Source: Alphaproteobacteria bacterium (GTDB lineage Bacteria; Pseudomonadota; Alphaproteobacteria; Bin98). Taken from it: DNA of 64,000 nucleotides. Made by a program: the position numbers and the translations under genes. Numbering within the stretch: position 1 is the stretch's first letter; the number at the start of each line of letters is the position of its first letter. Below, piece after piece: positions 2,486-33,214 of this stretch. The notes beneath the pieces are model-generated. The model did not search any database and was not told the origin of the DNA. It saw nothing but the letters and a program-made list of their open reading frames with translations. The stretch covers positions 57,046-121,045 of the forward strand of contig OZ253461.1 in the NCBI GenBank assembly GCA_965261615.1. Direction: 5' to 3'.

Positions 2486-3869
2486 CCCACCTTATGGAAA
2501 CAGTCTCTGAAGCAAACTCTTTTGACACAGTTACGCCCAAAGGAGCCCCCAGAATAAGGGCCTCATACGCATAGCAAATCGTTGGCAATACAATCTGCGG
2601 GCCATACCGCACCCTTATCTTCGAAAAATCGTGGTTTGCCTCCACCTTGTCTATAGAGCCAACCAACACTGCCCGCAGATCTGCCAAAAAATCTTGCAGA
2701 CCATTTACATCTCTCGGCTGCACATGATTATCAAACACACTCTTTATTCGTTTAACCCTAAAGTCCAAACCAATGCATTGTTGCATCCATTCAAACCCCT
2801 TAGAGCACCCCATGAGGTATGATAGTACATAGTCTCTATCTAAAGGAACCTCCTCCCCCAAAAGAACAGCCTTCTCAGCATTTTTTGACCAAAACAGTAA
2901 CAGCGCATCATAAAAGTAATATAAATAGGGATCTTTGTCCTTTAGTTTGTGGCGCACAGTTTGGTCGTTAGCAGGCAAAATATAAAACATTGAGTGGGGC
3001 AAAATTGGCACAGCAGCCACCTTCAACGGCGTTGCATCCCCATCCAAAGGGCTCTTCACATCTAAAACTTCAGCATTTGGAAGAGACTGAAATGACGCAT
3101 CTATTGCATCCTCGTGCACACTCCAAAGCAAAAGAGAGTCTACCGCATGCTCTACTGCCATTGCAACAAATGTTGCAATGGGCTTTACTGTGTTAAAAAC
3201 AATAACACGCTTATTCCCAGAAAGTACACGATGCGACCCCACAGTCGGCTCTGGCAGTTCGGCCTCAAGCAACAAGTAACACTCTACAAAAGACTTAGTT
3301 GTTGTCAAAAACTTTGGAACAGAAAATAAGGCCTGAAATTTCTGAATACCCTCCATCTTTACCCCAAACAGCTCCTTTATAAAGCCACGGGATCGGGAGC
3401 TTTCCTTTGCAGCAGCAAACAAACTATTGTCCGTCAAGTTTTGTCCTGATAGGCACTGAAAGTCGCTGCGTGCTTTAAACAGATCAACCATAACTCCTGC
3501 CATATCCCGCTCTAACCCCACATACATCAGCTCATCATAAGATTTTGAGTAGCGCAGATAAATGGACTTGCCCTTTAGCTTCTGTGACTCTGGCAAAGGC
3601 TTGACCATTTTTGCTACGTGCCCGGCCTCTGCATCCAAACCCTTTGTTTTCAAAACCGCCACCAAAGACAGCACACAAGGCAAAATTGTATAAGGGTCAA
3701 GCCAACCAGGCAGTCGTCCACTAACCCAAGACACAGGAGATGCGGTGCCATTAAGCCAATCAGTCTCATTACCTGCCTGCAAACTTTGGGATCCCCACAA
3801 ACCAACAAACAGCACAAAACAAAACTTACCCATAATAGTGACTTTACTGAGGATAGAACAAAAAATCAA
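2466..3869 (-). CDS. Hypothetical secreted protein
   Basis: 467-aa ORF with a hydrophobic N-terminus (MGKFCFVLFVGLWGSQSLQAG; the true start may be ~3833). No recognisable catalytic motifs. Confidence 0.5.
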   Translation of the reverse strand: MIFCSILSKVTIMGKFCFVLFVGLWGSQSLQAGNETDWLNGTASPVSWVSGRLPGWLDPYTILPCVLSLVAVLKTKGLDAEAGHVAKMVKPLPESQKLKGKSIYLRYSKSYDELMYVGLERDMAGVMVDLFKARSDFQCLSGQNLTDNSLFAAAKESSRSRGFIKELFGVKMEGIQKFQALFSVPKFLTTTKSFVECYLLLEAELPEPTVGSHRVLSGNKRVIVFNTVKPIATFVAMAVEHAVDSLLLWSVHEDAIDASFQSLPNAEVLDVKSPLDGDATPLKVAAVPILPHSMFYILPANDQTVRHKLKDKDPYLYYFYDALLLFWSKNAEKAVLLGEEVPLDRDYVLSYLMGCSKGFEWMQQCIGLDFRVKRIKSVFDNHVQPRDVNGLQDFLADLRAVLVGSIDKVEANHDFSKIRVRYGPQIVLPTICYAYEALILGAPLGVTVSKEFASETVSIRWGDEESC

Positions 3870-7235: not shown

Positions 7236-8516
7236 TTAGCCCGTCACCTTCACACCCCATGACGCCCAGTCCTCTCCTACTGGAACACCACTTTCGTCAG
7301 CAGACAAAATAACGCAGGTTCCAAGCGAAGACAAAATGTCAGCAGCAACCCTCCTCACCTCATCTTTCGTCGTTGCACACAGCTCCTTCACCCTTATAGC
7401 AGAGTCAAATATCTCACCTTTATGTAAGTAAAACTCCGCAATGGATCGCGCACGACTACCGCTAGACTCCCAACGCATGAAGCTTTGAGCATATATCTGT
7501 TTGCGCGCCTGCTCCATCTCCTCATCTGTTGGACCGTTTTCTGCTAAATCACGTACTTGCTCAATGGTCAAACGCAGAACTTTTTTTATTTCCTCGTTAG
7601 AGGTCCCTGCATACATACCCCACAAACCAGCTTCTTTAAACGCAGAATAAAAAGTACTAATTGTATACACTAAACCAAATTTTTCACGAACTTCGTACAC
7701 CAGTCGAGAGGACATTCCTCCACTCAATAAAATATTAGTAAACATCCATGCATCCGCCAGTGGTGCACCTATTTTAGGTGCCCGACAGCCCCAAATTAAC
7801 TGCGCCTGCTTCATCTCTTTTCGGCAGTAATGGTGCGTGCCCCCTTGGTGTATGGGCTCTTCACTGTCACTCAAAGGCAACTCATTCGGCGGAATGCTGT
7901 AACTCTTTTCGATGTAGCTCACAATAGTATCATGATCAACATCTCCAGACGCCACCATTACAGTACGACTAGGGCTATAGTATCTCGTAATAAACTCCCT
8001 CAACACTTCTGGCGTCATGGCTTTTATAGTTTCTTCAGAGCCCAAAATAGGCCGAGCTAAGCTATGTTTTCCAAAAACATGCTCTTGAAAATAATCAAAT
8101 ATAATGTCGTCTGGTGTATCAATTGACTGCATCAACTCTTGCAAAATAACAGTACGCTCACGCTCCATTTCTTCTTGGTCGAGGGTAGAATTTTGTAGCA
8201 TATCACTTAACACGTCTACCAGAACATGTGCATCGCTTGACAGAACCTTTCCATAGTAGGCGGTTACTTCTCGTGAAGTATAGGCGTTAAAATACCCCCC
8301 TAGCCTCTCAATTTCTAAAGAAATATCTAACGCACTTCTTTTCTCTGTGCCTTTAAACGCCATATGCTCAAAAAAATGAGCAGCTCCATTATTAGCATCT
8401 TGCTCACAAACGCTCCCAGCTTTAATCCAAAACCCAAGGGAAGCTGTCTGAACTTCTGGCATTTTATCGGTAATAACCACTAACCCATTTTTTAATTTTG
8501 TTTTTTGTATACTCAT
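7236..8516 (-). CDS. M16-family zinc metallopeptidase (insulinase/pitrilysin-like)
   Basis: An inverted zinc motif HFFEH, then ...ERLGGYFNAYTSREVTAYY, which is typical of M16 peptidases. 426 aa. Confidence 0.85.
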   Translation of the reverse strand: MSIQKTKLKNGLVVITDKMPEVQTASLGFWIKAGSVCEQDANNGAAHFFEHMAFKGTEKRSALDISLEIERLGGYFNAYTSREVTAYYGKVLSSDAHVLVDVLSDMLQNSTLDQEEMERERTVILQELMQSIDTPDDIIFDYFQEHVFGKHSLARPILGSEETIKAMTPEVLREFITRYYSPSRTVMVASGDVDHDTIVSYIEKSYSIPPNELPLSDSEEPIHQGGTHHYCRKEMKQAQLIWGCRAPKIGAPLADAWMFTNILLSGGMSSRLVYEVREKFGLVYTISTFYSAFKEAGLWGMYAGTSNEEIKKVLRLTIEQVRDLAENGPTDEEMEQARKQIYAQSFMRWESSGSRARSIAEFYLHKGEIFDSAIRVKELCATTKDEVRRVAADILSSLGTCVILSADESGVPVGEDWASWGVKVTG

Positions 8517-8585: not shown

Positions 8586-9179
8586 CTACAAGAACTTTTC
8601 TCTCAGCAACTGCGCAGCCCTATTTCCCACGCAATAGCTCATTCTTACAAGCATCTTATTTTCGGCCCTCAGCGGCAGTGCACATTCATATCTCTCCTCA
8701 CTATACACACTCTCCCAATACTGCTTTGCCTTATCTAAAAATTTACACTTTACGTCTGCACTTGCCTTGTCCCAACTGCACACATCCTCACCCTCTAAAA
8801 GCTCTGCCAAATTATGTACCCATTTTTTTTCTAGCCGCACAGGGCGACTACTGTTCAAAACGTAGTCCAATCGTGTAAGCGTTTCTCCAGATTGAAAAGA
8901 TTCGTCTTTCAGATTTTCCAATGTCGCGTACGCCTCTTCATCAATCCGGGGCGATTTGATGAAGCCCTCTAAAAGGCGCACTCGTTTTACTGTGGCTTCC
9001 CTTGCATTCTCATACGCTTTCAAATCAGCTTCACACAGCCACTGGCTTACTGCAGAAGAGTTCACTAAAACCTCCTCACCTTTTTCCAGTTTTTGATACA
9101 AACCTAGCTCGTCTTCCCTAAGAAAACCAGCTGAATACACACTACTGGCAATAATTAATACACACAACGCTTTAAACAT
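8586..9179 (-). CDS. Hypothetical secreted protein; paralog of 10422..11021
   Basis: Signal peptide MFKALCVLIIASSVYSAG. It shares LVNSS..QWL and a C-terminal Cys-containing region with the 199-aa ORF at 10422..11021. Confidence 0.5.
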   Translation of the reverse strand: MFKALCVLIIASSVYSAGFLREDELGLYQKLEKGEEVLVNSSAVSQWLCEADLKAYENAREATVKRVRLLEGFIKSPRIDEEAYATLENLKDESFQSGETLTRLDYVLNSSRPVRLEKKWVHNLAELLEGEDVCSWDKASADVKCKFLDKAKQYWESVYSEERYECALPLRAENKMLVRMSYCVGNRAAQLLREKFL

Positions 9180-9186
9180 AATTCAC

Positions 9187-10314
9187 CTATTTTTCTTCAT
9201 CCCAAAGGAGCTTCTTTTCTTGAATTTTTCCCAGAATCACCCGGGCCCAATCCAACACAATCAACATCTGGTTACTCCCATACGCTCGACGCACTGTTGC
9301 TGAAGAGTGCGATAAAGCCAGGTGCCAAAACAAAGTCGATAGAGCTTTCGCATGCTCTTTGACACCACTCGACAAATAAGCATCACTCCTTTGCACCATC
9401 GTGCGCACAGAACTCAAGACACTATATACTGAATCGTCTAAACACCAAGCAGAACTTTCATACAAACCTCTCAGCTCTTCGACATACTGCTCCAAAAGAT
9501 CTTTCTGTGCACTATCAACGCACAACAACTCAGGGCCTTTAAGGGCCTGAATCTGATCCAACACCTTCTGGCAAACACTATATGGCGCCTGCCCTCTAAA
9601 CCACGCAAGCAAATTACCATCTCCACTTTCTGCACATACATCAGACAAGTCCCACTCTTTTTCCTTCTCTGAAAACAAGTTGCAAAATGCAGTAGGAGCA
9701 ACATCCTTCTTCTTTAATAAACTCTCAAAAAAAGACGTATTCTTCAATCCTATCGCACTCACTGCGCCACTATCCGCACCAGGAAATTGAATCCTAGCAC
9801 TTTTCACTGCCTTTACCAAACTCTGGTAAATTTCTCCACTAGACTGTTTTTCGTTCATAACAAGCTTCGGAGCCTCGCGCTCCAGCCTCTTCACCCGCTC
9901 AATAGCATGACTGTCTGCAAAGGGTCGGGAATGGGGTGGGCAAATAACCGGACAATCAACCTTCAAAAGTGATGTTCTCTCCATTTCCAGAGCTCGCCTT
10001 TTTTTAGACGCGACAGCACAAGCAAATAGACGTTGTGCCACCACATCTGCCTCACCTTCATCAACCTTTTCCCACGATTTAGTACGATCCACCGCTTTTT
10101 CTAAAGCGTTTTTATGTTCATGAAAGACACCTTCCCACGTCTTGAGATCTTGCCCAACAACAGCCAGCCGCTCTTGTGCAGCATTGAACGCTAACCTCTG
10201 CTCCTCTATACGCCGACGCCTTTCCAAGGCTTTCGTCAACTCTTCATCTGCTGCAATTGCAACTACACTCACCATCAGCATTACGAATACTTTCATCACA
10301 TATCTCCAATACAC
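9187..10314 (-). CDS. Hypothetical secreted protein; paralog of 11018..11998
   Basis: Signal peptide MKVFVMLMVSVVAIAADEELTKALE. It resembles the N-terminus and overall layout of the 326-aa ORF at 11018..11998. Confidence 0.5.
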   Translation of the reverse strand: MYWRYVMKVFVMLMVSVVAIAADEELTKALERRRRIEEQRLAFNAAQERLAVVGQDLKTWEGVFHEHKNALEKAVDRTKSWEKVDEGEADVVAQRLFACAVASKKRRALEMERTSLLKVDCPVICPPHSRPFADSHAIERVKRLEREAPKLVMNEKQSSGEIYQSLVKAVKSARIQFPGADSGAVSAIGLKNTSFFESLLKKKDVAPTAFCNLFSEKEKEWDLSDVCAESGDGNLLAWFRGQAPYSVCQKVLDQIQALKGPELLCVDSAQKDLLEQYVEELRGLYESSAWCLDDSVYSVLSSVRTMVQRSDAYLSSGVKEHAKALSTLFWHLALSHSSATVRRAYGSNQMLIVLDWARVILGKIQEKKLLWDEEK

Positions 10315-10421
10315 TATTTGCCTTATCTAAAAATCACTCACAACAGAAAGTCACTACACGACCCTCTCATACACAACTTTGTACCTTTAACCTCACTCTA
10401 ATACAGTTACCAAAGAAACAC

Positions 10422-11021
10422 CTAATGCCGTTTCAGCAAATCCTCTAGCTTGTCTTGCACACTCCCAGCCAAGTCTCTCCAGAGACGATTTTCCTCAGCC
10501 ACCTCCACCCAACGCCGGTCTTTTCTTTGATCCAAGGCGCACTGCCAGACCTCCTTGGCAAAATCTGCACACCTACCCTTTATTTCTGGACTCGCATCAT
10601 CCCAGAAGGTGTCACTATCACCCAACAGTAAGCTCAACTCCTTGCGCCAATTTGGGTTTAACTCTCGAGGGCTATGAAGTTTCACAATCGTCTCCATATT
10701 ATAAAAACATTGGCAATCCAGCTTAGAGGCTATTTCTTCCGCTGTCGCACGCATATCGCCCACTATTTGAGCAGCGTTACTGTGCTCCTCTGCAAATGTC
10801 ATTCCTTGTATTGTCAATGCCTTTGCCTTTTCATACTCTTCAACCTCATCTTCCTTAAGCCACAGCCTTAACTCAGAAGAGTTGAGAACTAGCCCCTCAC
10901 CACGCTGCACCTTATTAAAAAAAGCCATCTCTCGCTCTTGGCGAATTCTGGGATCACACCACCAAGAAGCAGACTGAACGCAGCTGGCTATCACTAACAA
11001 TACACTAAGTAACTTAATCAT
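10422..11021 (-). CDS. Hypothetical secreted protein; paralog of 8586..9179
   Basis: Signal peptide MIKLLSVLLVIASCVQSASW. LVLNSSELRLWLKEDEVEEYEKAKA aligns with the 8586..9179 product. Confidence 0.5.
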   Translation of the reverse strand: MIKLLSVLLVIASCVQSASWWCDPRIRQEREMAFFNKVQRGEGLVLNSSELRLWLKEDEVEEYEKAKALTIQGMTFAEEHSNAAQIVGDMRATAEEIASKLDCQCFYNMETIVKLHSPRELNPNWRKELSLLLGDSDTFWDDASPEIKGRCADFAKEVWQCALDQRKDRRWVEVAEENRLWRDLAGSVQDKLEDLLKRH

Positions 11022-11998
11022 ATAACACCTACTCTTTTCTGGCTTAACACAGAAGCTTTGCTTCCCTTTTGCAGTTTATGATCACAGGCTTTAATACGCG
11101 ACATCACACCCCGAACCTGCAATAACGCATGCTCTCTCAGCTCTTCTTTTGAGCGAGCTACAACATACTGAAAAAACTCATCGGCCATTTCGCGCGCCCT
11201 CAGCACCCTCTTATCCGATTTTACTTCAAGCAGTTCTTGCCAAGCAGTCACCACACGGCCTTCCTTATCCCGCTTCAAATCAGCGCCCGAGGAATCCATT
11301 ATGTTCTCCTTACTACACATATGTGCTAAACTCTCTCTTTTATCTTGAAGCTCTCTTTGCACATTACTAGCCAAAGAGCTCACATCACAGCGCTCTATAC
11401 TCTGCACCACTGTCAAGGCATCGCGATAATAGCTGTGTATCGCATGACTTTCAAATCTCTGCTCCATCTCTTGTGGGGACTCTACGCATGCCGCTCGAAA
11501 ATCCCACGCGCTCTCTTGTGCTGCAAGCTCTTCAAAAATCTCCCCTTGAAAAGATGAAATGTCCCCGCTTCTAGCACGGGAAATAGCCTCGCCCACTGTC
11601 TGAGGCTCATGACCGTTCAAAGAGCTCTCTCCTGCAGAGGCATGAGTGTCGCCTTTACGCAAAAACTCAAGCAAATCATCTCTCTGACTTAAAAGATTTT
11701 GCTTCTTTCTTTCAGCAACAGCACAATAAAAAACAGCTGCACTTATTTCATTAGCACAATCAGAATCAAGATCCTCCCACGCTAGAGATAAACCCAATGT
11801 ACTATCCACAACTGAATGTAACGAACCCTCGTAACCCTCCACGGCAGATGTCCATTGCATAATTTCTTGCTCAACAACATCAAGAGAGACCTGGTCTCTT
11901 GGTCCGCCCAAAACAAGGCGCGTTTCCAGCGCCTTCGCCAACTCTTCTTCTGCTGCAGTTGCAACTATACCTATCAGCATAAACACTACGGTTTTCAT
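11018..11998 (-). CDS. Hypothetical secreted protein; paralog of 9187..10314
   Basis: Signal peptide MKTVVFMLIGIVATAAEEELAKALE. It contains the AWDFRAACVESPQEMEQRF block that is also seen in 14010..14591. Confidence 0.5.
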   Translation of the reverse strand: MKTVVFMLIGIVATAAEEELAKALETRLVLGGPRDQVSLDVVEQEIMQWTSAVEGYEGSLHSVVDSTLGLSLAWEDLDSDCANEISAAVFYCAVAERKKQNLLSQRDDLLEFLRKGDTHASAGESSLNGHEPQTVGEAISRARSGDISSFQGEIFEELAAQESAWDFRAACVESPQEMEQRFESHAIHSYYRDALTVVQSIERCDVSSLASNVQRELQDKRESLAHMCSKENIMDSSGADLKRDKEGRVVTAWQELLEVKSDKRVLRAREMADEFFQYVVARSKEELREHALLQVRGVMSRIKACDHKLQKGSKASVLSQKRVGVI

Positions 11999-12354
11999 CC
12001 AACATCTCCAATAAAGCTATTTTACCTTATCGAAAAATTTACTCCAAACACCAAGGGATTAGACGGTCTCTTGATAGCCTAAGTTTGTGTTGCGAGTGTT
12101 ACAGTCAAAAATACAAGCACAAATAATAAGCGAAAAATGCTGAAAAGCTCAGCACTCTGCATTAATTACTTGCCATCGTACGTGGGCCCCTTCAGTGAAC
12201 TGAGCCCTCTTAACACAGCTAAAAATTACTCTCACTTCTTTAGCTCGCAATCACAGCTTCTCTCTGATCGACCCAAATACACACTCTATGCTGCTGCCAT
12301 CTCGGAGCATCACCCCTACCAAGCCAAGACCTTTGCATCTCAAGTGAGGGCTTT

Positions 12355-13638
12355 CTACATTTCAAAATAAACGTCTTGCATCATAGCTGCTATCTCGGAA
12401 CAGTCTTCTTCTAAGTGTGGTGCACTAAAAGCCACTATTATTTTTTTAGACTGCTCTAAGCTCAATGTAGCAAACTGCCCAACACTTTTTGTTATCCGAG
12501 GCAAATGCTCCTTTATAAAATCTTTACGTTGAAGGTTCTGAGTATAAGACCTTGCCTGATCTGCCAGCAAGAGAAGTATTATCTCATGATTTGCATCTTC
12601 GCGTTGGTTGTATATAGGTGCAAGGGCATCCATCACACTAAATATTTTGGTCAAAGATAAGGCACTTAGGTTTTTTAAATCCTCTGATTTTGCAAATGTG
12701 TAGTCCAGCCACTCCACACCTTCCTCTGGACGCACTTCCCTTATATATTGTTGCGCGACGTAAAGCTCCCTTTCCGCCCAATAAGAACCCACATCCTTCG
12801 CCTCTGCCCTCCAAAGATATACTATACCAGGCAAAACTCTATCAACCTGAGCATAAGCTACAAACCGCCCAAACTTCTTCTTCCACTCAACTTCTTGTAC
12901 CGTCTTGATGCAAGTTGCAAGCCTTGTGCCATCCTTCACGTCCTCACAAGTTAGAGCTCTCAATAATCCCCATAAAACAGAAGACAAGTGAACTGTTATC
13001 TTCTGATCTCTCCAAATCTCTACCCCCACCACTTCTTGCAAAGCGTCAGGCTTATTTTTCTGTTTCGCCACGTAGTCTATTAAAAATTGCATCGGTGGCG
13101 TCTGTGTAATTTCACAAACATGCTTGGCGACTTCACCCTCAAAATTTGGAAAGATTGGAGACAACCATGGATTCTGATTCAATGCCACACGAAACAATTG
13201 TATCTGCCCAATAGCAGAGCAAACCTTCGTCAACTGACGAAGAGAGACAGCAAGCTCCCATCCTGGCAACAAAGGCCCCGGAAGCTTAAGCTCCTTATTT
13301 TGCAGCAAGGCCTTTTGCAACCTATCACATGGTAGGCGATAGTTCTGTTCCCACTTGTTAAAGGAGGAGGGCAACACACCCACAGCGTCAGGAACCTCAT
13401 ATTGCAAAGCTGTCTGCACTATATCAAAAACTTGTCCCATATAACCATAAAATTGCTCCGTAAAGGCATCCGTTGCCAGAGCGTTGGATTCAAACAGATC
13501 CATTACCGTTAAAACTCTTTTTATTTGCGATAACATGTCACTAGAAAACACGTCACTGTGGAAAGACGCCGCTTTTGCTCCACACACGCACCATATCATT
13601 ATTATAGAAAAAATTCTCTGCATGTCATACTCTATCAC
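12355..13638 (-). CDS. Hypothetical protein (427 aa)
   Basis: Long ORF with a hydrophobic N-terminus and no recognisable motifs. Confidence 0.45.
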   Translation of the reverse strand: MIEYDMQRIFSIIMIWCVCGAKAASFHSDVFSSDMLSQIKRVLTVMDLFESNALATDAFTEQFYGYMGQVFDIVQTALQYEVPDAVGVLPSSFNKWEQNYRLPCDRLQKALLQNKELKLPGPLLPGWELAVSLRQLTKVCSAIGQIQLFRVALNQNPWLSPIFPNFEGEVAKHVCEITQTPPMQFLIDYVAKQKNKPDALQEVVGVEIWRDQKITVHLSSVLWGLLRALTCEDVKDGTRLATCIKTVQEVEWKKKFGRFVAYAQVDRVLPGIVYLWRAEAKDVGSYWAERELYVAQQYIREVRPEEGVEWLDYTFAKSEDLKNLSALSLTKIFSVMDALAPIYNQREDANHEIILLLLADQARSYTQNLQRKDFIKEHLPRITKSVGQFATLSLEQSKKIIVAFSAPHLEEDCSEIAAMMQDVYFEM

Positions 13639-13904
13639 AAAAACTTAAAAATTCCCATCCTAGCTTAAACAACCAGAGCACAAACCACATGTAGCGCCAC
13701 AGTCTTTTCCAAGTTGCGACCCATAAGCGTTGCAACTGCGCTTGCCCCGCACTTATATTAGGGAACAATGTTTGGTCGTCCTCTTAATTACTCCGCAGAC
13801 ACGTTTTGCAAAATTTTTCCACCCAAGCCTAGAGTTGCGCAACAACATTTTTCGTAACCGCCGGACCTTAATCAAAACGCTCCCGCAAACAGGCCATGCC
13901 GCTT

Positions 13905-13962
13905 CTGGCTATACGGTCACAACTACACTCACCATCGGCATGACTAATATTTTCGCCCGCTC
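13905..13962 (-). pseudogene. Decayed 5' remnant of a secreted-protein paralog (signal-peptide fragment only)
   Basis: The reverse complement reads ...KILVMPMVSVVVTV*. The DNA caccatcggcatgactaatattttc resembles the start region of 9187..10314 (caccatcagcattacgaatactttcat). No downstream ORF follows. Confidence 0.3.
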
Positions 13963-14009
13963 ATAAGGAGTCCCCCCAATCATCAAATGGCTATATAGCG
14001 CCTCTATGA

Positions 14010-14591
14010 TTAATCGACAGCAGCCACATTGCTTTTAACATTGCCTCCGGCTTTAACACGCAAACGCATGTCCTCCACTTGACCTAATGCATATTGATTC
14101 AACTCATTTTCTGAGCGCACAAACACATAAGTAAACAGCTGAATCGCCACTTCACGCACCATCAACTCTCTGTCACTCCCTGATGCACAAAAGCTTTTCC
14201 AAGCAGCTTCCAAATGGCTCTCTCTATCTTGCAAAGATACAGGTTTGCCCAATGCCTTTATACAACAATCCAGTTTGGCGTGCAGCTCCTCTTCCTTTTT
14301 TTGAAGTTGCGCAGAACCCAGAGTGTCTGTTTCTATTTGCCGCACTAACGCCCAGGCCTCCTGAAACGTGCGGTATATTCTCTCCCTCTTAAATCTCTCC
14401 CGAAGCTCGTGTGGTGGCTCTACACATGCAGCACGAAAATCCCATGCACTCCCTATCTTAAGAAGAGCTGTAAAGTGGCCTGGGTAAACGTCGACTTTTT
14501 CACTGGTTCTAGCCGCACGAATGTCGTCCTCTATTGACGAGCATACAGCTGTCACTGTCCATACCATTAGCATCAATATTATTTTCATCAC
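14010..14591 (-). CDS. Hypothetical secreted protein; paralog of the C-terminal half of 11018..11998
   Basis: Signal peptide MMKIILMLMVWTVTAVCSS. GSAWDFRAACVEPPHELRERF matches ESAWDFRAACVESPQEMEQRF in 11018..11998. Confidence 0.5.
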   Translation of the reverse strand: MMKIILMLMVWTVTAVCSSIEDDIRAARTSEKVDVYPGHFTALLKIGSAWDFRAACVEPPHELRERFKRERIYRTFQEAWALVRQIETDTLGSAQLQKKEEELHAKLDCCIKALGKPVSLQDRESHLEAAWKSFCASGSDRELMVREVAIQLFTYVFVRSENELNQYALGQVEDMRLRVKAGGNVKSNVAAVD

Positions 14592-14619
14592 TCCCCCTTA
14601 TAAAGCTAACGCAACCGCC

Positions 14620-14988
14620 TTACACTGATCCGGTTCGCCGCTTCTCTAAAGCCTCAGCTAACCGTTCATCCCAAAACAGTCCTGCAGGCTTTTGTTGCAA
14701 GCGCGCTATTTCCTCATTCAGGGACACAAGATCCAGGGGGTGAGCTATCTCTCTGATGCGCTGATCAACTACTCTTCGCTTCTCTAAAGCCTCAGCTAAC
14801 CGTTCATCCCGAAACAGTCCTGCAGGCTTTTTTTGCAAGCGATCTATCTCCACGTTCAAAGGCACAAGTTTCTGCTTCTCTTGCGCTATTTGCGCGTCAC
14901 GCTCCTTTTGATCACATTCTTCATTAGATGCAGCAACCGCAGCCACACTCACAAACATCAACGCTAATATTTTCATTAAATTCTCCAT
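14620..14988 (-). CDS. Small secreted coiled-coil protein with an internal ~40-aa tandem repeat
   Basis: Signal peptide MKILALMFVSVAAVAASNEE. Two copies of L(Q)KKPAGLF(R/W)DERLAEALEKRR are encoded by a ~120-bp direct repeat (approx. 14625-14705 and 14765-14845). Confidence 0.5.
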   Translation of the reverse strand: MENLMKILALMFVSVAAVAASNEECDQKERDAQIAQEKQKLVPLNVEIDRLQKKPAGLFRDERLAEALEKRRVVDQRIREIAHPLDLVSLNEEIARLQQKPAGLFWDERLAEALEKRRTGSV

Positions 14989-15211
14989 TGTTTAGATTAT
15001 AGCCCAAAACCTCACACACGACAATACAGAAGATAAGCGCTACTTTGATCGACCTATATCACCCAGGTAAACACCCTCCAAAAACACAAAGGCAATCTCA
15101 TGCACCCATGTTTTTGTGTCTTCTTTCAACCAATCGGGCCCTTTAGTGCGCGAGACGATTGCACCCAACGAAACAATCTACACGCCATCAAGCAAAAGGT
15201 GCATTTGCTGC

Positions 15212-15292
15212 TCTAGGTCCATTTTGACAATAGTTTTTTTCTGATGCCGCAACTGCTGCTATACTCACTAGCATCAATAATATTATTTTCAT
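15212..15292 (-). pseudogene. Truncated remnant of a small-secreted-protein family member
   Basis: The reverse complement from ATG 15290-15292 encodes MKIILLMLVSIAAVAASEKKLLSKWT* (26 aa). This matches the family signal peptide but stops immediately afterwards. Confidence 0.35.
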
Positions 15293-15328
15293 CAAAATCT
15301 CCTTATGTCTTTAAAAACCAAATACACT

Positions 15329-15727
15329 CTAATCGAGGGCCTTTTTTACGCACGCTAATCTCTCCTGTGTCGCTTTCAACTCCTCTTTTTTCTCTTTTAG
15401 ACGTTGGTTCTCGCCAGGCTGTGTCTCCCAGAAGCTTACATCTTTTTGCAACAACTGGGCAATCTCGCTAGCGATCTTAAAATCATTAAGCATTTTTACG
15501 CGCCCACTCCACATCTTCCGTTCTTCTTTCTTCCCCTCTAGCCTTGCCCGCTCTTGAGGCAAATCCCCCAAGTATTTTATATCTGCGTCAAGCAAATCAA
15601 TTGTATACTTTACATCTCGCATTTCAGTCATTCTTCGATTGTATTCTTGCTGCTCAAAATACTGCAACCCTTCATCCTGTGCTGCAGCCGCCACTATACT
15701 CACTATCATCAATAATATTATTTTCAT
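15329..15727 (-). CDS. Small secreted coiled-coil protein (family with 14620, 15766, 16010)
   Basis: MKIILLMIVSIVAAAAQDEGLQYFEQQEY...; the likely start is the Met at ~15727. The C-terminal part is charged and helical. Confidence 0.5.
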   Translation of the reverse strand: MKIILLMIVSIVAAAAQDEGLQYFEQQEYNRRMTEMRDVKYTIDLLDADIKYLGDLPQERARLEGKKEERKMWSGRVKMLNDFKIASEIAQLLQKDVSFWETQPGENQRLKEKKEELKATQERLACVKKALD

Positions 15728-15765
15728 AACTATCTCCACTCTCATTAACTGCCCGCAATGCCACG

Positions 15766-15963
15766 CTAGAGGATCTCATTAAGCGCTGCCCGCAACTCCT
15801 TTTCCTGCCACGCTAAACTTTGGCTCTGGATGGGCCTTTCCCTCAAAATGCTTATATCTCTTTTAAGAAGCCAAATCTCAGCTTCCTTGAGCTTCACCCA
15901 TGCAACACCTTCATCCTGTGCTGCAGCCGCCACTATACTCATAAGCATCACCATTACTATCAT
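15766..15963 (-). CDS. Small secreted protein, same family (65 aa)
   Basis: MIVMVMLMSIVAAAAQDEGVAWVKLKEAE... shares the signal peptide and QDEG motif with neighbouring genes. Confidence 0.4.
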   Translation of the reverse strand: MIVMVMLMSIVAAAAQDEGVAWVKLKEAEIWLLKRDISILRERPIQSQSLAWQEKELRAALNEIL

Positions 15964-16009
15964 CTAAAGCCTCCGCTAAACTATGTCCTAACTCAAAGCA
16001 CTCCAAGTC

Positions 16010-16279
16010 TTAGTCTGTTCCGCCTGAAGAAACAAAAGTCGTCAACACATCTAAGCGCGTTTTCCACCAACCCAGATCCTTTAGCTTGGCCTCTAGCCTT
16101 GACCACTCTTTAGGATTACCCTTCAAGAGTTTTACATCTTCCTCAAGCAAAGTAACCATATGTTGCGCGTCCCGCATCTCCACCATTATTTGAGCTTTTT
16201 CTTGCTCAGCCCACTGCAACCCTTCATTCTGTGCTGCAATCGCCGCTATACTCACAATCATAAATGCTAATGTTTTCAT
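16010..16279 (-). CDS. Small secreted coiled-coil protein, same family
   Basis: MKTLAFMIVSIAAIAAQNEGLQWAEQEKAQIMVEMRD... has the same layout as 15329..15727. Confidence 0.5.
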   Translation of the reverse strand: MKTLAFMIVSIAAIAAQNEGLQWAEQEKAQIMVEMRDAQHMVTLLEEDVKLLKGNPKEWSRLEAKLKDLGWWKTRLDVLTTFVSSGGTD

Positions 16280-16483
16280 CAAAATCTCCATTATCCAGAT
16301 TGTATCCTATGTAAAAAAATCCCACAAACTACAACACCAATCCGCCAGAGATCCGCGACTCAATCTGTATCATATAAGTAACTAGCAGACGAACCCATGC
16401 CATCAGACTTTAGCGCTACTCTTTAAGCCAAAAGACTATTAGCCAAAGTGGTGCGTTTTGAGGGGGTTCACTTACACACCCGT

Positions 16484-16687
16484 CTAAGTTTTATAAGCCA
16501 GACAATCCTGAAGCTCTTTCAGATCTCGCCAATACAAGTGAACTCTTGCTTGCACCATCTCGCTTTGAGGCTGCTTCTTCCAATACTCAATGTTTGCACA
16601 AACGTGTCGTATCTCCTTTTCCACTTGCGAAACCGTCATACTATCCCAATCAAATGCCATCGCCGCTACACTCACCATCACCAACAC
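16484..16687 (-). CDS. Small hypothetical protein (67 aa), possibly related to the family
   Basis: MLVMVSVAAMAFDWDS... has an N-terminus in the same style. Support is weaker. Confidence 0.3.
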   Translation of the reverse strand: MLVMVSVAAMAFDWDSMTVSQVEKEIRHVCANIEYWKKQPQSEMVQARVHLYWRDLKELQDCLAYKT

Positions 16688-16755: not shown

Positions 16756-18033
16756 TCAGCTATACACAAATTGTATCAAAATGTGCTGCTTCTTCCCACA
16801 CCTTACGTGCAAAAGTCCACGTCCAACGACATCTCGGGTAATCATAAAAAGCTCATCTAAAATTTTGTCCCCATTCAAGCGCAGACCACCATCACGCACC
16901 ATCCGACGTAAACTTCCTTTAGACATATCTGGACGCACAGCATGAATCACATCGATTAGCGACTGCGGCTCCTCTAAGGAGCTTATACTTTGCTGAAAAA
17001 CAGGGAGCTCCGAGGTTACTTTCAAGTTCCCTTTTTCATCAACACCATCTACTATAAAGGGCTCTGATGACTGCTCCAACTGCACAACCATCTTACGAAT
17101 TTCCTGCAGAACTTCCGGACCATGCAGCAATCCAGTAGCTTCATCGGCTAGAATTTTTTTGGCATCATTCGGGTTTTCATTTTGAGTAACACGAGAAATC
17201 TCCTCCAAAGACAGCATGGTAAAGAGCTTTAAGAAACGCTCTATATCCTCATCCATCACATTACGCCAATACTGCCAGTAATCATAAGGATTTAATTTTT
17301 CTTTAGACAACCAAACGGCCCCTTGCGCGGTTTTTCCCATTTTTTCCCCTTTGCTATTTTGCAAAAGAGGAACCGTAAACCCAAAAGCTTGCTTACTCAG
17401 CTTCCGGCGAATCAGGTCTATTCCACTTACAATATTTCCCCACTGGTCCGAGCCTCCCGCTTGCACTAGACACTCTTGCTCCTTCGCTAACACATAAAAA
17501 TCATACGCCTGACAAACCATATAGTTAAACTCTAAAAAAGATAGAGGCTGGTCGCGGTCAAGGCGTCGCTTTACGCTTTCAAAAGACAACATTGCATTGA
17601 CAGAGAACAGAGCTCCAAACTCACGCAAAAAAGGCAGATATTTCAAATGAGGAAGCCATTCCTTGTTGTTAAGGACTGAAATCTCCCCAAGGGGCAAAAC
17701 TTGCCCTATGCTTTCACGAATACCTTCGGCAAAAGAATCAATTGTATCCTCTTGAAGCATTTTTCGCGTTGCATCCTTTTCTGAAGGGTCTCCCACCTGC
17801 GTGGTTCCCCCCCCCAACAAAAGTATCGGGTGGTGTCCACACTCTTTTGCCCAGCGTAACACCATAAGTGGCAGCAGGCTGCCCACATGCAGGCTATTGG
17901 CAGTTGCATCAAATCCAATATACATTTTTCGAGGCTGTGCAAAGTACTCCTGCAACTCTTTTTTATGAGTACACTGGTACAAAAAACCTCTTTCTTCAAG
18001 AATTTGTAAAAAATCCCCCGGGCATTTTTCCAT
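16756..18033 (-). CDS. tyrS: Tyrosine--tRNA ligase
   Basis: Class I HIGH-type motif (GFDATANSLHVGSL), a KMSKS-type motif (GEKMGKT), and a C-terminal S4-like region. 425 aa. Confidence 0.9.
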   Translation of the reverse strand: MEKCPGDFLQILEERGFLYQCTHKKELQEYFAQPRKMYIGFDATANSLHVGSLLPLMVLRWAKECGHHPILLLGGGTTQVGDPSEKDATRKMLQEDTIDSFAEGIRESIGQVLPLGEISVLNNKEWLPHLKYLPFLREFGALFSVNAMLSFESVKRRLDRDQPLSFLEFNYMVCQAYDFYVLAKEQECLVQAGGSDQWGNIVSGIDLIRRKLSKQAFGFTVPLLQNSKGEKMGKTAQGAVWLSKEKLNPYDYWQYWRNVMDEDIERFLKLFTMLSLEEISRVTQNENPNDAKKILADEATGLLHGPEVLQEIRKMVVQLEQSSEPFIVDGVDEKGNLKVTSELPVFQQSISSLEEPQSLIDVIHAVRPDMSKGSLRRMVRDGGLRLNGDKILDELFMITRDVVGRGLLHVRCGKKQHILIQFVYS

Positions 18034-18124
18034 GCTATATTTTACCCTATCCCTCTCACAAGAACAAGAGACGCCCTCTGCTTAGGCGCAGCAAAACTCA
18101 GCTCGCCTGTTTTGCATTACCGAA

Positions 18125-19768
18125 CTATTGCCAAGGCACTCCCTTAAAGAAAATCTCCTCCAAAGCACCGCATCTATTCAAACGCAGCAGCGGTTTGCCC
18201 GGAACAGGAATCTCAGCAGAACAGTTAAACCTTAATTGCCAATCTTCCCAGGAAGGCACACCCTTCACCCACGATAAAGAGCTCTCTTTCTGTGCGCTTT
18301 GTTCAAAAAGCGCATCTGTTTGCCCAGTACAAAAAAGCGCATGCCGTAATTTCTCTCTCTGAAGTGGACTCAAAACATCACGCAGCGGCACCGCACTAAG
18401 TTGCGCGCTAATATCCGTAAAGTATGCAAATGTTGGGCAGAACTTTTCTTTCCAAAAACCAGAAGAAGTCAGCCTAGACAGTTCCTCAGATCTCACGCTA
18501 GAGATTGCACTCCTGAATGCAGCAACCGTTTCCTCGCCTAACGGTAGGCGAAAGGAGCAACTCACTTTAGCCTGTTTATTGTCATCATAGCCTATCTGGT
18601 ATTTTACATAAGGTTCCGGCACTAACATCACACGTCGTGCTTGTCCTTGCGTCTTCCAAAAGCGATCTAACACAAAAGCCATTATATCAAGCTCATGTTC
18701 TCTCAAAACATCATCCTTCTGAAACAGCAAGGCAACCTGCTTCAAGTAATGCCGAAAACTCCCTAAGTCACACAGCTCAGGCTGCCAGGTGCGCTCCTGG
18801 TTTTGATCCACTGTACTGAGCGTCCGTCCAAAAGCACGCGCCATATTACAAATTACAGGACTCCGAACAGCGTCCAGCCACCCCTTTAGCATGCCCCATG
18901 GATCTACACCACAATTTACTGCCGGCCCATACCAGGAAAATACACGCTCTACCTCCTTGCTTATCCATTGCTCTCGTTTTTTCCATAAACTGTCTATTAT
19001 CTCTACAATCTCTGGCGCCACTGTGCACAGCACGCCTCCCCACATCTCAGGCGTATCCGGCTCCTGACATCCTATTGCAAATATATCGGCCACCACATGC
19101 AAAAACTGGCTCACCCTCAAAGCGAATATATTCTCTGATCTATGCTCCACGCTGCCCCACACTTGCGGCACCAGCTTTTGCACCCTCCAGTAAGCATCCA
19201 CAGCAGCCCACATTGCTAAGCAATTAATTTGCCGCCTCAAGCACGGCAAATGTAAATCACAAAACCACTCAGGGCACAACGACACAGCGTTATTTTGCAC
19301 CATTTCTCCAACACTTATACTGTCATCAGCATATCCCACGCTTAAATCCGGGCTATTAGCGTTTTGCATCATTTCTTCCAGCAACACACAAGCCCCACCA
19401 CAGCGCACGAGTGTTGTAAGCGCATTCGCAAACTCCCGCACCACTGACTCTGGCACACAAACCTGCTCTGTGTATGCATGTAGTTCAGAGCACAAGGGAC
19501 CTGCGCTACAGTGTGAACTCAAAACACTCTCCCCCAGCCCATTCGACCGCAAATCGGCACACGGGCTACCCTGCACTGGCGCAGAAAGTTGAGGCTCCCT
19601 GTACCCAAGAGCTCCCGCAATTTTTTCATTAAACAAATTAGTAACGGGCCTATAGGCGGCCCCACTCACCACATAACGTAAAATGGAGGTTTCCAACGCC
19701 TCAGCAGGGATCAAACCCGAACTAGAGGCAAAAACCGCACCAGAAATAACCAAGATTAACAAATTCAT
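18125..19768 (-). CDS. Hypothetical secreted protein (547 aa)
   Basis: Signal peptide MNLLILVISGAVFASSSG. No recognisable motifs. Confidence 0.5.
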   Translation of the reverse strand: MNLLILVISGAVFASSSGLIPAEALETSILRYVVSGAAYRPVTNLFNEKIAGALGYREPQLSAPVQGSPCADLRSNGLGESVLSSHCSAGPLCSELHAYTEQVCVPESVVREFANALTTLVRCGGACVLLEEMMQNANSPDLSVGYADDSISVGEMVQNNAVSLCPEWFCDLHLPCLRRQINCLAMWAAVDAYWRVQKLVPQVWGSVEHRSENIFALRVSQFLHVVADIFAIGCQEPDTPEMWGGVLCTVAPEIVEIIDSLWKKREQWISKEVERVFSWYGPAVNCGVDPWGMLKGWLDAVRSPVICNMARAFGRTLSTVDQNQERTWQPELCDLGSFRHYLKQVALLFQKDDVLREHELDIMAFVLDRFWKTQGQARRVMLVPEPYVKYQIGYDDNKQAKVSCSFRLPLGEETVAAFRSAISSVRSEELSRLTSSGFWKEKFCPTFAYFTDISAQLSAVPLRDVLSPLQREKLRHALFCTGQTDALFEQSAQKESSLSWVKGVPSWEDWQLRFNCSAEIPVPGKPLLRLNRCGALEEIFFKGVPWQ

Positions 19769-19967
19769 ATTACAGAATTATATCACACAAAAACTATCTC
19801 CTAAGATAACCGCCACACAATATGCCGCCCCCGCAAAGGAAGAGCACAACCTTGCCTGGCAAGGTGTGCCACGTGCTGTAGCACACGGTTAAAGGCTCCT
19901 ACCTCCACGCCGTTGTCACCTTCGCCTCAAAGGAAAAAACTCGCACACCACCGGAAATCAAGAGAAA

Positions 19968-20013
19968 TGATAAAAACATAAATTCTGTAACGATAAAAAC
20001 ATAAATTCTGTAA
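19968..20013. repeat. 2 x 23-bp direct tandem repeat (gataaaaacataaattctgtaac) upstream of the first family-A gene
   Basis: 19968-19990 and 19991-20013 are identical apart from the last base. Confidence 0.7.
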
Positions 20014-20045
20014 TTCTAAAGGTTTCTGTGATATATTAAGTAACG

Positions 20046-20927
20046 ATGAATTTTATCCTTATTTTCACTCTATGCATATCAACCTACTCGATTGGCGCTA
20101 GTTCTCACGCAACCACTTCTATTTGGAATGAGTGGAGCGTGGAAGAGCTCGCCTACTTTTTGCAATTCAACAGTGCTATTGTAGAGAGTTGTTCAACCGC
20201 CTTGCAGTATAACTATAAAAGCACTCACGAGACAAGAATCAAGACAGCTCTAAGTCACTTACACCAGCAATACACCGAAGCAGTCGTATCTTGTGCTGAA
20301 GCATTTTATGACGCTTTATACCCCCAGGAGCACGCTAAGGCAAGTGACACAGAGCCTCTCAGCTATCAATCACTGCCCTCCTTCAGGAAAAGTGCGCTCT
20401 TCCAGAACGACAAGTTCCACCCCGAATTAGCCCGTTTAATAAAAAAGCATGCTAGCAAAGACGGCCCAACCTGGAACACCGACCTCCCCAGTGACTATTT
20501 TCCCTTCGCAATCCTCTCTGAAAATAGTTTTGGTAGCATTACACACATCACAATCCCACTTTATATTGCAAAAAAGGGCAGCCTTCAACAAACACACATA
20601 CACAAACATGACGCAGAGGTCTTGATCCCCACAGACAGCACATTAGCCTTAAGCAAACACGCACTACTGACCATAGAAACCGGAGCCATATTTATATTTG
20701 CAAAAATCGCCATTTCCCCTTTAACTAAAGCCCTGTCTCAGAAGCTATCTTTTACCGCATACGAAACAAAAAGATCGCCCACATCACCCTTAGAAGCACG
20801 TCCGCGTAGTCAACAGATAGAGCTCTGTCTCGCACAGCTCTATCAGCATCGCCCAAAGTCTTCTCCAAGCGCAACACCTGACCTTATAAGACCGGAGCCA
20901 CCCACAGCTACACTTATAAAATTTTAA
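20046..20927 (+). CDS. Family-A secreted paralog 1 (293 aa)
   Basis: Signal peptide MNFILIFTLCISTYSIGASSHA. Conserved blocks SCAEAFYDAL, LFQNDKFHPELARLIKKH, IPLYI, HIHKHDAEVLIPT, GAIFIFAKI, SFTAYETK, and a C-terminus IRPEPPTATLIKF. Confidence 0.7.
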   Translation: MNFILIFTLCISTYSIGASSHATTSIWNEWSVEELAYFLQFNSAIVESCSTALQYNYKSTHETRIKTALSHLHQQYTEAVVSCAEAFYDALYPQEHAKASDTEPLSYQSLPSFRKSALFQNDKFHPELARLIKKHASKDGPTWNTDLPSDYFPFAILSENSFGSITHITIPLYIAKKGSLQQTHIHKHDAEVLIPTDSTLALSKHALLTIETGAIFIFAKIAISPLTKALSQKLSFTAYETKRSPTSPLEARPRSQQIELCLAQLYQHRPKSSPSATPDLIRPEPPTATLIKF

Positions 20928-21084
20928 TAGATAATTTGGAAGGAAGCTACCCACCCTGTATACCCCCCAGATAAGGCCCCTACTGACAAGCCTTTTAGGT
21001 TTGAAAGCTTGCGCACACCGCCGGATATTCAGAGGCAGCGATAAAATAAGTTCCTTAACAGAGCTTTCTGTGATAAACTGCGTA

Positions 21085-22050: not shown

Positions 22051-22185
22051 ACAGGTTTCCCCCATACACCTCGTCCTGCAAGGGACGGCCTGTTCTCCAT
22101 GCGACATCTCGGGCATCACAACAAACCGCATATCCCAAAACACATATAAACTTGACTTTCTGTGCGTTTAAAGTATAATAAGGTT

Positions 22186-23151: not shown

Positions 23152-23347
23152 TTATACTTATCGGACTCTAATTGAATAGTCTGGGGCGTTTCCCCCCGTT
23201 TAATGGTGGGTACGCCCTAGATCAGGCTCCCACTGCCAAGCCTTTTTGATTTGAAAGCTTGCGCATGCTACCGAAAGGATGAGCAAATACAGCAAAAATA
23301 TAAACTAAGTAGGGGGCTAGCATTTTTTGTGATATAACTACTGTACG

Positions 23348-24187: not shown

Positions 24188-24364
24188 GCACTTATAGGCA
24201 TTTAATTGGATAATTTGGGACATTTTCCCCCCGTTTAGTGGTGGGTACGCCCTAGATCAGGCTCCCATTGCCAAGCCTTTTAGCTTTGAAAGCTTCATAG
24301 GATGACAAGCACATCAAATACATTATGTGGACTTTTAGAGTGTTCTATGCTATAAGTTGTTACT

Positions 24365-25243: not shown

Positions 25244-25284
25244 CTTCAGTTAGATTAAAATTTTCTGTGATATAATCTCACACG

Positions 25285-26235: not shown

Positions 26236-26271
26236 TTGCCCCCCCCTTTTTCTCTGTGATACACTTATGCG

Positions 26272-27201: not shown

Positions 27202-27230
27202 ATTTAAAATTTTCTGTGATACAGTACATC

Positions 27231-33140: not shown

Positions 33141-33214
33141 ATCATAGGTTGGGGAGGCAGCGCGATACTCAGAAGTTATCAGTCTGCTTTAAGGCCGGCA
33201 CTGCTCTTTCAATC

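Follow-up and report, generated by a model that had tools for sequence, protein, structure and literature searches.

An orphan-gene array with predicted signal peptides and an old tandem duplication of a long/short gene pair

Two adjacent units of about 1.7 kb, each holding a long and a short gene, are old tandem duplicates, and they belong to an array of about 8.2 kb (8586-16687) made up of twelve orphan open reading frames and fragments, all on the minus strand. The original prediction for this 64-kb window (the whole stretch of DNA that was analyzed) had described a duplicated two-gene module; the duplicated pair is real, but the frame was too narrow, since the pair is only one part of the orphan array. 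Taken as a whole, the explanation we consider probable is that of a lineage-specific orphan array that evolves by birth and death and includes exported partner proteins. We are highly confident of the anatomy and evolutionary history of the array. The functional part of this explanation, namely export, paired action and a role at the envelope or toward a host, is predicted from sequence and is put forward tentatively.

The duplicated long/short unit

All four open reading frames of the predicted pairs were found on the minus strand: L375 (9187..10296) and s197 (8586..9179, 197 aa) in unit 1, and L326 (11018..11998, 326 aa) and s199 (10422..11021, 199 aa) in unit 2. Instead of the predicted 375-aa start of L375, ATG 10296 is the most likely one (369 aa, MKVFV...), as in the public annotation; more generally, the array reading frames that start with MK are those annotated publicly. 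The repeat of the pair was borne out by BLASTP and by shuffle tests, the latter on mature parts only. The short proteins are 27% identical over 204 columns, that is, over their full length (E 3e-19, z 23), and the long proteins are 34% identical over their first 116 aa only (E 2e-14, z 12). L375 consists of a signal peptide (MKVFVMLMVSVVAIA, followed by AD), an N domain and a C half that has diverged, and L326 of a signal peptide, an N domain and a C domain. The short proteins start with signal peptides of their own (MFKALCVLIIASSVYS followed by AG in s197, MIKLLSVLLVIASCVQS followed by AS in s199). The Cys-rich tail ascribed to them earlier was overstated, as there are 5 Cys per mature protein and their positions do not align.

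Homology between the two units extends over the leader, the long gene, the coupling junction and the short gene. The L375 leader (10297..10421, minus strand) carries the motif GATTTTTAGATAAGGCAAA at 10317-10335 and the ribosome-binding site GGAGAT, and the homologous L326 leader (11999..12130, minus strand) has the motif at 12021-12039. In both copies the junction reads TAGGTG(A/T)(A/T)T(T/A)ATG and is of the translational-coupling type. In unit 1 it is a 7-nt spacer (9180..9186, minus strand), with an AGGTGA ribosome-binding site that overlaps the long gene's TAG stop, and in unit 2 it is a 4-nt overlap in which the L326 stop lies within the s199 start (ATGA). Despite divergence to about 30% identity, the long and short genes are intact in both copies.

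It had also been proposed that the long and short proteins work together. What speaks for this is that they were duplicated as one unit with a coupling junction, that the genes have stayed intact, and that all four proteins share Sec-type N-termini; what weakens it is that adjacency after a tandem duplication is partly trivial and that the number of pairs is two. No terminator-like sites were seen in the intergenic gaps of the array, where a promoter/terminator scan performed at chance level. Together, the duplication as a unit, the junction, the intact genes, the lack of terminator-like sites and the Sec-type N-termini argue that the two genes are co-transcribed, that their products are made in a fixed ratio and that both reside outside the cytoplasm. 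Each pair would be carried on one mRNA and translated at a constant ratio, with the long and the short protein probably acting together in their extracytoplasmic location, for instance as a heteromeric complex. Such pairing is not general in the family, because ten of the twelve array reading frames or fragments have no short partner. AlphaFold models behind the all-alpha prediction were of low or moderate confidence: the best L326 model was all-alpha with two domains (pLDDT 68, the other four 46-51), and the model of the short pair was unusable (pLDDT 39.5). Fold searches with AlphaFold models returned generic helical hairpins only.

A ribosome-binding-site and signal-peptide cassette

The array is held together by a cassette consisting of a ribosome-binding site and a signal peptide, which occurs in exactly 10 copies between 10240 and 16696 and nowhere else in the 64 kb. 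By inspection, its N-termini read MK, 13-15 hydrophobic residues, A-x-A and then acidic residues, which is the tripartite organization of Sec/SPase I signal peptides. The Kyte-Doolittle maximum lies at the N-terminus only, with no hydrophobic segment further in. We infer that the array N-termini are cleavable Sec signal peptides, which would direct the products to the periplasm, the surface or the medium. A lipobox ([LVI][ASTVI][GAS]C) was absent from the cassette proteins; a lipobox-like IAS-C was present in s199 only, and s197 has Ser in place of its Cys.

The same cassette precedes at least four mature parts that are unrelated to each other. Those of the long, S122 and S138 groups are mutually unrelated (shuffle z about 0), and that of P193 is related only to the L326 C domain. 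P193 (14010..14588, minus strand, 192 aa) joins the cassette signal peptide directly to this C domain and lacks both the N domain and a short partner. Its match covers L326 residues 134-304, the C-terminal 170 aa (34% identity, E 5e-22, z 30). Of the two long genes, only L326 is the source of the AWDFRAACVE block that this gene was said to re-use; against L375, BLASTP gave nothing significant. In S122 (14620..14976, minus strand), the cassette is combined with a 46-codon stretch that is duplicated internally in tandem (89% nt identity) and that resembles the N-terminal EELxKALExR segment of the long genes (z about 4). A further set, also on the minus strand, is formed by S138 (15329..15727, 132 aa), in which the cassette precedes a coiled-coil-like mature part, its paralog S93 (16010..16279, 89 aa, 46% identity) and S65 (15766..15963), a shortened paralog with the altered start MIVMVML... 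Apart from all of these stands M422 (12355..13623, minus strand), an orphan of 422 aa whose signal peptide is a different one (MQRIFSIIMIWCVCGAKA followed by AS) and which is unrelated to the other members.

Truncated and dead copies lie among these genes, all again on the minus strand. A signal-peptide-only fragment, seen in the original prediction, is real: at 13902..13965, GCG stands in place of ATG, and the codons AAA ATA TTA GTC ATG CCG ATG GTG AGT GTA GTT GTG ACC GTA TAG read KILVMPMVSVVVTV* as first quoted, with a stop after 14 sense codons and no open reading frame behind. This remnant was detected by nhmmer as a cassette copy (E 1.8e-11), and over ATGC(T/C)GATGGTGAGTGTAGTTG it agrees with the DNA encoding the L375 signal peptide at 21/22 nt. 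A truncated cassette gene of 34 aa lies at 15188..15292, and a possible but marginal remnant (IVSLGAIVSRTKGPDW, z 4.2) at 15118..15177. S67 (16484..16687), whose start is frameshifted and whose signal peptide is truncated, is a cassette copy that is probably decaying. Across the array, then, the cassette is attached to unrelated or rearranged mature parts, with P193 as cassette plus C domain, S122 as cassette plus a duplicated N-terminal-like segment and S138/S93/S65 as a third set, besides the truncated and dead copies. Signal-peptide orphan families crowd the whole window, and several of them lie outside the array.

Synonymous divergence is about three-fold lower in the cassette (pS 0.08-0.23) than in the mature parts (0.28-0.68), and no conserved RNA structure was found in the cassette. 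One bolder reading would turn this pattern into an effector nursery in a diderm alphaproteobacterium, where the cassette is repeatedly joined to new or rearranged segments to yield exported, host-directed proteins. Gene conversion or selection at the nucleotide level would keep the cassette uniform, and each long/short pair would form an obligate two-component exported factor (an effector with an extracytoplasmic partner, or a toxin with an immunity protein). The pair leader would moreover derive from part of the coding region of the short gene; codons ~145-157 of s197 (8706-8746) are a near-match to the leaders of both long genes. Taken with all of these parts, we regard this reading as unlikely, though less so than the alternatives below.

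Among the closest known systems are the sequence-variable mosaic (SVM) effectors of phytoplasmas, reduced-genome bacteria in which a conserved signal-peptide motif is found on otherwise unrelated, small, fast-evolving secreted proteins (PMC8026896). The array shares with the SVM effectors (SAP11, SAP54; PF12113) the arrangement of a conserved signal peptide in front of unrelated mature proteins. Unlike them, the array proteins have no PF12113 match (hmmscan against Pfam-A, E<=1, 10 proteins), they are encoded in one chromosomal tandem array rather than in potential mobile units, and two of them have a coupled short partner. In addition, Sec export alone would reach only the periplasm, because the organism, unlike the SVM hosts, looks like a diderm alphaproteobacterium with Tol-Pal.

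Genomic setting, relatives and selection

The array lies on a 1.47-Mb contig from a small, alphaproteobacterium-like genome. From contig size and gene content only, a host-associated lifestyle may be inferred. On the minus strand, an M16 peptidase gene (7236..8516) begins 69 nt downstream of s197, with tolQRAB adjacent beyond it, and tyrS (16756..18033) lies 68 nt upstream of S67. The original prediction had proposed a search for the module in relatives, and in the nearest relative found, the metagenome contig L081, the array was absent by both tblastn (zero matches for its genes) and synteny. This contig keeps tolQRAB, the M16 gene and tyrS (identities of 54% for M16, 56% for TyrRS, 49% for TolB and 61% for Obg), and its tyrS and M16 genes overlap by 4 nt (ATGA) with nothing between them. 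Because of this overlap, the array reads as a lineage-specific insertion between the two genes.

Scans of ten array proteins against Pfam, NCBIfam, PADLOC and PHROGs gave nothing above noise, and tblastn against plasmids and phages gave no relative. A profile of the short pair found only self matches among 5.8 billion proteins (word-indexed search), and with full HMMER the short-family profile found only the two window proteins and two spurious repeat proteins among 1.84 billion representatives; in the public protein collection, s197 stands as a singleton with no name. Among PDB sequences, neither the short-family profile nor the C-domain profile had a match. M422 and L326 likewise matched only themselves among the 5.8 billion proteins, the L326 result being a weak negative because the same search missed its in-genome paralog P193. 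A metagenome pattern scan also found no relative of L326. For the long family, "no homologue" comes from this word-indexed search that missed P193 and from searches of Pfam, NCBIfam, PDB, plasmids, phages and metagenome patterns, all of which were negative. Neither Rfam nor a tRNA scan gave a match in the window, and TRF reported no tandem repeats.

The composition of the array is that of the resident genome (GC 0.43-0.48, GC3 skew +0.37 to +0.76), with an RSCU correlation r of 0.72 between the array and same-strand housekeeping genes. Recent horizontal transfer was rejected on this composition, a phage or defence island on the negative PADLOC and PHROGs results, a lipoprotein array on the restriction of the lipobox-like motif to s199, and a beta-barrel outer-membrane-protein array on the lack of a Pfam match and the helical predictions.

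The array proteins could instead be housekeeping components of the periplasm or outer membrane, such as lineage-specific envelope scaffolds linked to Tol-Pal, and not directed at a host. They look exported and all-alpha or coiled-coil, the array stands in line with housekeeping genes so that read-through from tyrS is possible, and tolQRAB is close by. Against this, the nearest relative keeps tolQRAB, M16 and tyrS and is missing the array, and such rapid divergence and copy turnover are atypical of structural housekeeping proteins. We consider this alternative rather improbable.

Amino-acid constraint in the array is weak. For mature parts, pN/pS was 0.69 for the long pair (p<0.001), 0.89 for the short pair and 1.36 for S138/S93, the last two not being distinguishable from 1, and values near 1 in the short pair and the small paralogs are also expected of decaying genes. 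These ratios would fit evolutionary debris, that is, non-functional or barely functional reading frames drifting neutrally under weak purifying selection, in which the pairing has no functional meaning. So would the dead or truncated copies (13902-13965, 15188-15292, 16484-16687 and possibly 15118-15177), the lack of relatives of the short family in the two large protein collections, and a GC3 skew above that of the housekeeping genes, as expected if mutation bias dominates. However, open reading frames of 192-422 codons have stayed intact although synonymous divergence is saturated, and the small paralogs keep their frames open at dS of about 0.3. The long-pair ratio is significantly below 1, and ribosome-binding sites, signal peptides and the coupling junction are conserved. 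Debris is an improbable account of the array, slightly more so than the housekeeping one.

Comparison with known systems and significance

Of the alternatives weighed here, we give least weight to a polymorphic toxin/immunity system, which would make the long protein an exported toxin, the short protein its periplasmic immunity protein and P193 an orphan C-terminal module. Polymorphic toxin systems are reported to diversify their C-termini by recombination with standalone cassettes (PMC3482391). As in those loci, the long proteins have a better-conserved N-terminal part (116 aa) with C halves that can barely be aligned, a small gene follows directly downstream (7-nt spacer or 4-nt overlap), and the C domain is reused separately in P193; predicted export signals on both partners would suit a toxin acting in the periplasm. 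Unlike in those loci, the candidate immunity proteins are homologous to each other, the orphan module is headed by a signal peptide of its own, and neither recognized domains nor a sharp recombination boundary are present. The N-terminal part is itself only 34% identical, and similarity declines gradually: a gapped Smith-Waterman alignment of the long pair extends to residue ~270 in the 375-aa reading frame and to residue ~220 in L326, collinear similarity of the C halves around W-D..C.ES is weak, and the C-terminal ends and the junction are still alignable. The short proteins are homologous over their full length, while the long C halves are marginal (hhalign E 0.008). P193 lies upstream, not downstream, has its own ribosome-binding site, start and signal peptide, and lacks an immunity-like partner. 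Pfam, NCBIfam and PADLOC returned no domain of a toxin, pre-toxin or immunity protein, and PDB sequences were also negative; neither a catalytic motif nor a hydrophobic pore-forming hairpin was seen, and dedicated secretion genes were not found nearby.

The overall layout of the array resembles that of the OMP-1/P28 and Msp2 superfamily of the Anaplasmataceae, in whose small alphaproteobacterial genomes same-strand signal-peptide paralogs, including truncated copies, stand in tandem between housekeeping genes. The OMP-1/P28/Msp2 proteins are beta-barrel porins of the Pfam family Surface_Ag_2, whereas the proteins studied here are predicted to be all-alpha, have no match to that family and are far more divergent. 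Paralogous surface families of Borrelia and Mycoplasma also have conserved leader and signal-peptide regions, and there as here the DNA of the 5' untranslated region and signal peptide is more conserved than the mature coding part. Those proteins are lipoproteins with a lipobox, unlike the array proteins with the s199 exception noted above, and no inversion or expression-site architecture was seen in the array. The pairs also differ from the chaperone-effector pairs of type III and IV secretion, in which the chaperone is small and cytoplasmic, since both short proteins carry N-terminal signal peptides.

Small genomes commonly carry tandem families of rapidly evolving signal-peptide proteins, and the pattern recurs within the same window, so that the array alone opens no new mechanism. 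It is a clean example of the birth and death of orphan genes inside a former operon junction. In the birth-and-death explanation, the array would supply fast-changing, exported alpha-helical proteins for the envelope or for interaction with a host. If its products are indeed expressed and exported, the array would mark a place where proteins of the surface or of the secreted fraction are created and lost in this poorly known lineage, and it would be a useful entry point to the interaction of the lineage with its host or environment.

The duplicated long/short unit

The original prediction proposed a duplicated pair of genes, and all four ORFs were found where it had placed them on the minus strand: the long gene L375 (9187-10314, 375 aa) and the short gene s197 (8586-9179, 197 aa) in unit 1, and L326 (11018-11998, 326 aa) and s199 (10422-11021, 199 aa) in unit 2. 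The start given for L375 needs correction, as the ATG at 10296 is almost certainly the real one (369 aa, as publicly annotated). The predicted similarity between the pairs was borne out, with the short proteins aligning end to end (27% identity, E 3e-19) and the long proteins clearly similar over the N-terminal ~116 residues (34% identity, E 2e-14). The 193-aa gene P193 (14010-14591), put forward as a partial-domain paralog, indeed matched L326 residues 134-304 (34% identity, E 5e-22) and has the 10-mer AWDFRAACVE in common with it; no significant match of P193 to L375 was detected. With signal peptides removed, shuffle tests gave z = 23 for the short pair, 12 for the long pair and 30 for P193 versus L326, compared with about 0 for unrelated pairs. 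The C-terminal halves of L375 and L326 showed weak similarity, in a collinear block around W-D..C.ES (hhalign E 0.008); a gapped local alignment extended to residues ~270 and ~220, respectively, and the extreme C-termini could be aligned (K[LI]Q..). The "Cys-rich tail" claimed for both short genes did not hold up, since the cysteines of s197 and s199 are not alignable.

In both pairs the short gene lies directly 3' of the long gene; unit 1 has a 7-nt spacer between the two, and in unit 2 they overlap by the 4 nt ATGA. The junction sequence is TAGGTG(A/T)(A/T)T(T/A)ATG in each case, and the AGGTG ribosome-binding site of the short gene falls within or beside the long-gene end. The regions upstream of the long genes could be aligned over ~125 nt, most strongly over the last 45 nt. 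Since homology spans leader, gene and junction, we conclude that a ~1.7-kb segment (leader, long gene, junction, short gene) was copied as a whole, head to tail. Terminator-like hairpins were absent from every intergenic gap of the array region, and promoter-like matches there were at chance level.

Of note, a 19-nt motif, AATTTTTAGATAAGGCAAA, occurs three times in the 64 kb (0.07 expected by chance), in minus-strand regions of DNA similarity at 8706-8746, 10306-10338 and 12008-12042. Two copies are in long-gene leaders and one is within the s197 coding sequence (codons ~145-157, KFLDKAKQYWES), so that the long-gene leader looks as though it arose from short-gene coding DNA or was converted against it. 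Similarity around the motif (z about 7) continues for some 35-40 nt and reaches the GGAGA ribosome-binding site; the homologous stretch of s199 has diverged.

A common cassette ahead of different mature parts

The GGAGA ribosome-binding site and long-gene signal-peptide codons form a cassette that tblastn and DNA alignment recovered in ten copies, with minus-strand start codons at 10296, 11998, 14588, 14976, 15292, 15727, 15963, 16279 and near 16687, the tenth copy being a remnant. An nhmmer cassette model gave exactly ten matches in 64 kb, all between 10240 and 16696; as it was trained on these same copies, only the absence elsewhere in the 64 kb is informative. The signal-peptide-only fragment that had been reported proved to be a genuine remnant (13902-13965), matching the L375 signal-peptide codons at 21/22 nt, with GCG in place of the start ATG and a stop after 14 sense codons. 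A possible eleventh remnant at 15118-15177 is marginal.

The mature parts borne by the cassette fall into separate groups, of which the long genes are one. In P193 the cassette is fused straight to a C domain of the L326 type. S122 (14620-14976) contains an internal 46-codon duplication (89% nt identity), and the repeated unit is similar (z about 4) to the long-gene segment EELxKALExR. S138 (15329-15727), S93 (16010-16279) and S65 (15766-15963) are mutual paralogs (S138 versus S93, 46% identity, E 1e-20), and further carriers are a 34-aa stub and the frameshifted copy S67 (16484-16687). The signal peptides of s197, s199 and a 422-aa gene (12355-13623) are unlike that of the cassette.

In the same gene pairs, pS was 0.08-0.23 in the cassette versus 0.28-0.68 in mature parts (~3-fold lower), whereas the short-gene signal peptides, unrelated to the cassette, showed no such reduction (pS 0.72). 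This low pS points either to gene conversion or to selection at the nucleotide level for the translation start and export signal as what keeps the cassette uniform. No conserved RNA structure was found in it.

Origin of the array and its orphan surroundings

The array of minus-strand orphan ORFs and fragments (8586-16687) lies between an M16 peptidase gene and tyrS. Its proteins, all encoded on one contig of 1,465,401 bp, are singletons in the public protein collection and returned nothing from Pfam, NCBIfam, PADLOC, PHROGs or PDB sequences. When 1.84 billion representative proteins were scanned in full by HMMER with a short-family profile, no relative outside the window emerged; the matches were the two window proteins themselves and a pair of spurious repeat proteins. 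A word-indexed search with L326 returned only itself, which is weaker evidence to be read cautiously, as P193 was also missed despite being in the collection. Metagenome, plasmid and phage scans returned no long-family relatives. The AlphaFold model of the short protein was unusable (pLDDT 39.5); that of L326 was moderate (pLDDT 68), with two all-helical domains, and matched only generic helical hairpins in a fold search.

The window TyrRS reached at most 47-49% identity to any of 185,579 species representatives, the best matches all being Alphaproteobacteria. Scanning metagenomes with the M16 peptidase from the flank yielded one much closer relative, L081 (contig Ga0209543_1000108; M16 54%, TyrRS 56%, TolB 49%, Obg 61% and malic enzyme 57% identity). 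Gene order is kept there, from Obg, L27, L21, tolQRAB, M16 and tyrS through hydrolase, rsmD, malic enzyme, a Tim44-like gene, Smr and DksA. In L081 tyrS and M16 overlap by ATGA, an adjacency seen only there among 160 loci compared, and no array protein had a tblastn match. The simplest account of the 8.2 kb between these genes is therefore an insertion or expansion, specific to this lineage, at what was once an operon junction; a deletion in L081 recreating the exact 4-nt overlap is less likely. Recent import was rejected because GC content, strand-specific GC3 skew and codon usage equal those of the neighbours (RSCU r 0.72).

The remainder of the window, too, is packed with orphan families that bear signal peptides. 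Between tyrS and an alpha/beta-hydrolase-like gene lies another large orphan block (18034-34258), with a 547-aa gene, the MKFILIF family and two further genes; L081 lacks this block, and there tyrS and the hydrolase gene are 65 nt apart (L081 8656-8720). About 12 plus-strand orphan genes of ~280-350 aa (20046-32319 and 54885-56629) form one family, 32-69% identical and free of Pfam matches, with the common signal peptide MKFILIFTLFISTYS(I/V)(G/A)ASS. Three copies of this family are fused in the 949-aa gene at 29470-32319, whose first 296 aa are 94% identical to the preceding gene (28329-29237). Six tandem minus-strand genes with signal peptides (38453-46303, 397-473 aa) had no Pfam match; two of the six have weak relatives (23-27% identity), tandem at the syntenic place in L081 (4-4666), one of which bears a GSSGSPL motif that calls to mind trypsin-like serine proteases. 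Near-identical repeats (95-99% amino-acid identity) in three adjacent minus-strand ORFs (57958-59590), one copy broken by an in-frame stop at about 59700, look like a recent duplication now decaying. The tolQ-L21 slot holds signal-peptide orphans in both genomes (window 1607-3869; L081 14533-16895) with no detectable similarity between them, a sign that exported proteins may turn over very fast in this lineage. Plus-strand GC skew is uniformly and strongly negative (-0.15 to -0.35 in every 2-kb bin of the window), the sign of GC3 skew tracks the coding strand, and no tRNA, rRNA or Rfam match occurs in the 64 kb.

Selection and possible role

The N-termini of the array proteins carry one Lys, 13-15 hydrophobic residues, A-x-A and then acidic residues, with no hydrophobic segments beyond. 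By sequence rules these are predicted cleavable Sec signal peptides, and the products would leave the cytoplasm. A role in the envelope or in host interaction is our guess, by analogy and from the small, orphan-rich genome; lineage-specific envelope housekeeping is a rival reading.

For mature parts, pN/pS was 0.69 in the long pair (p<0.001 versus 1), and 0.89 in the short pair and 1.36 for S138/S93, neither significantly different from 1. Amino-acid constraint in the array is therefore weak, as might be expected of neutral debris. Yet reading frames as long as 422 codons have stayed open although synonymous divergence is saturated, and start sites, signal peptides and junctions have been retained, a pattern that fast-evolving functional genes with frequent loss fit better than pure debris does.

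The suggestion that long and short proteins are partners is partly supported: as the coupling junction is conserved and neither gene has been lost, they would be made together and probably act jointly outside the cytoplasm. Toxin plus immunity pairs fit only in part, the gene layout agreeing to some extent but with no toxin domain found in Pfam, NCBIfam or PADLOC, no evident sharp boundary and candidate "immunity" proteins (s197/s199) that are homologous to each other.

Most like the array are the phytoplasma SVM effectors, which have one conserved signal-peptide motif in front of unrelated effectors (PMC8026896), just as a conserved signal peptide here sits atop unrelated mature parts; the array falls outside that family, as it gave no match to PF12113. 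Altogether, its duplication history and cassette sharing are demonstrated here, along with its orphan status in the databases searched and, as the simplest reading, its insertion; the array adds new orphan families to a kind that is already familiar.
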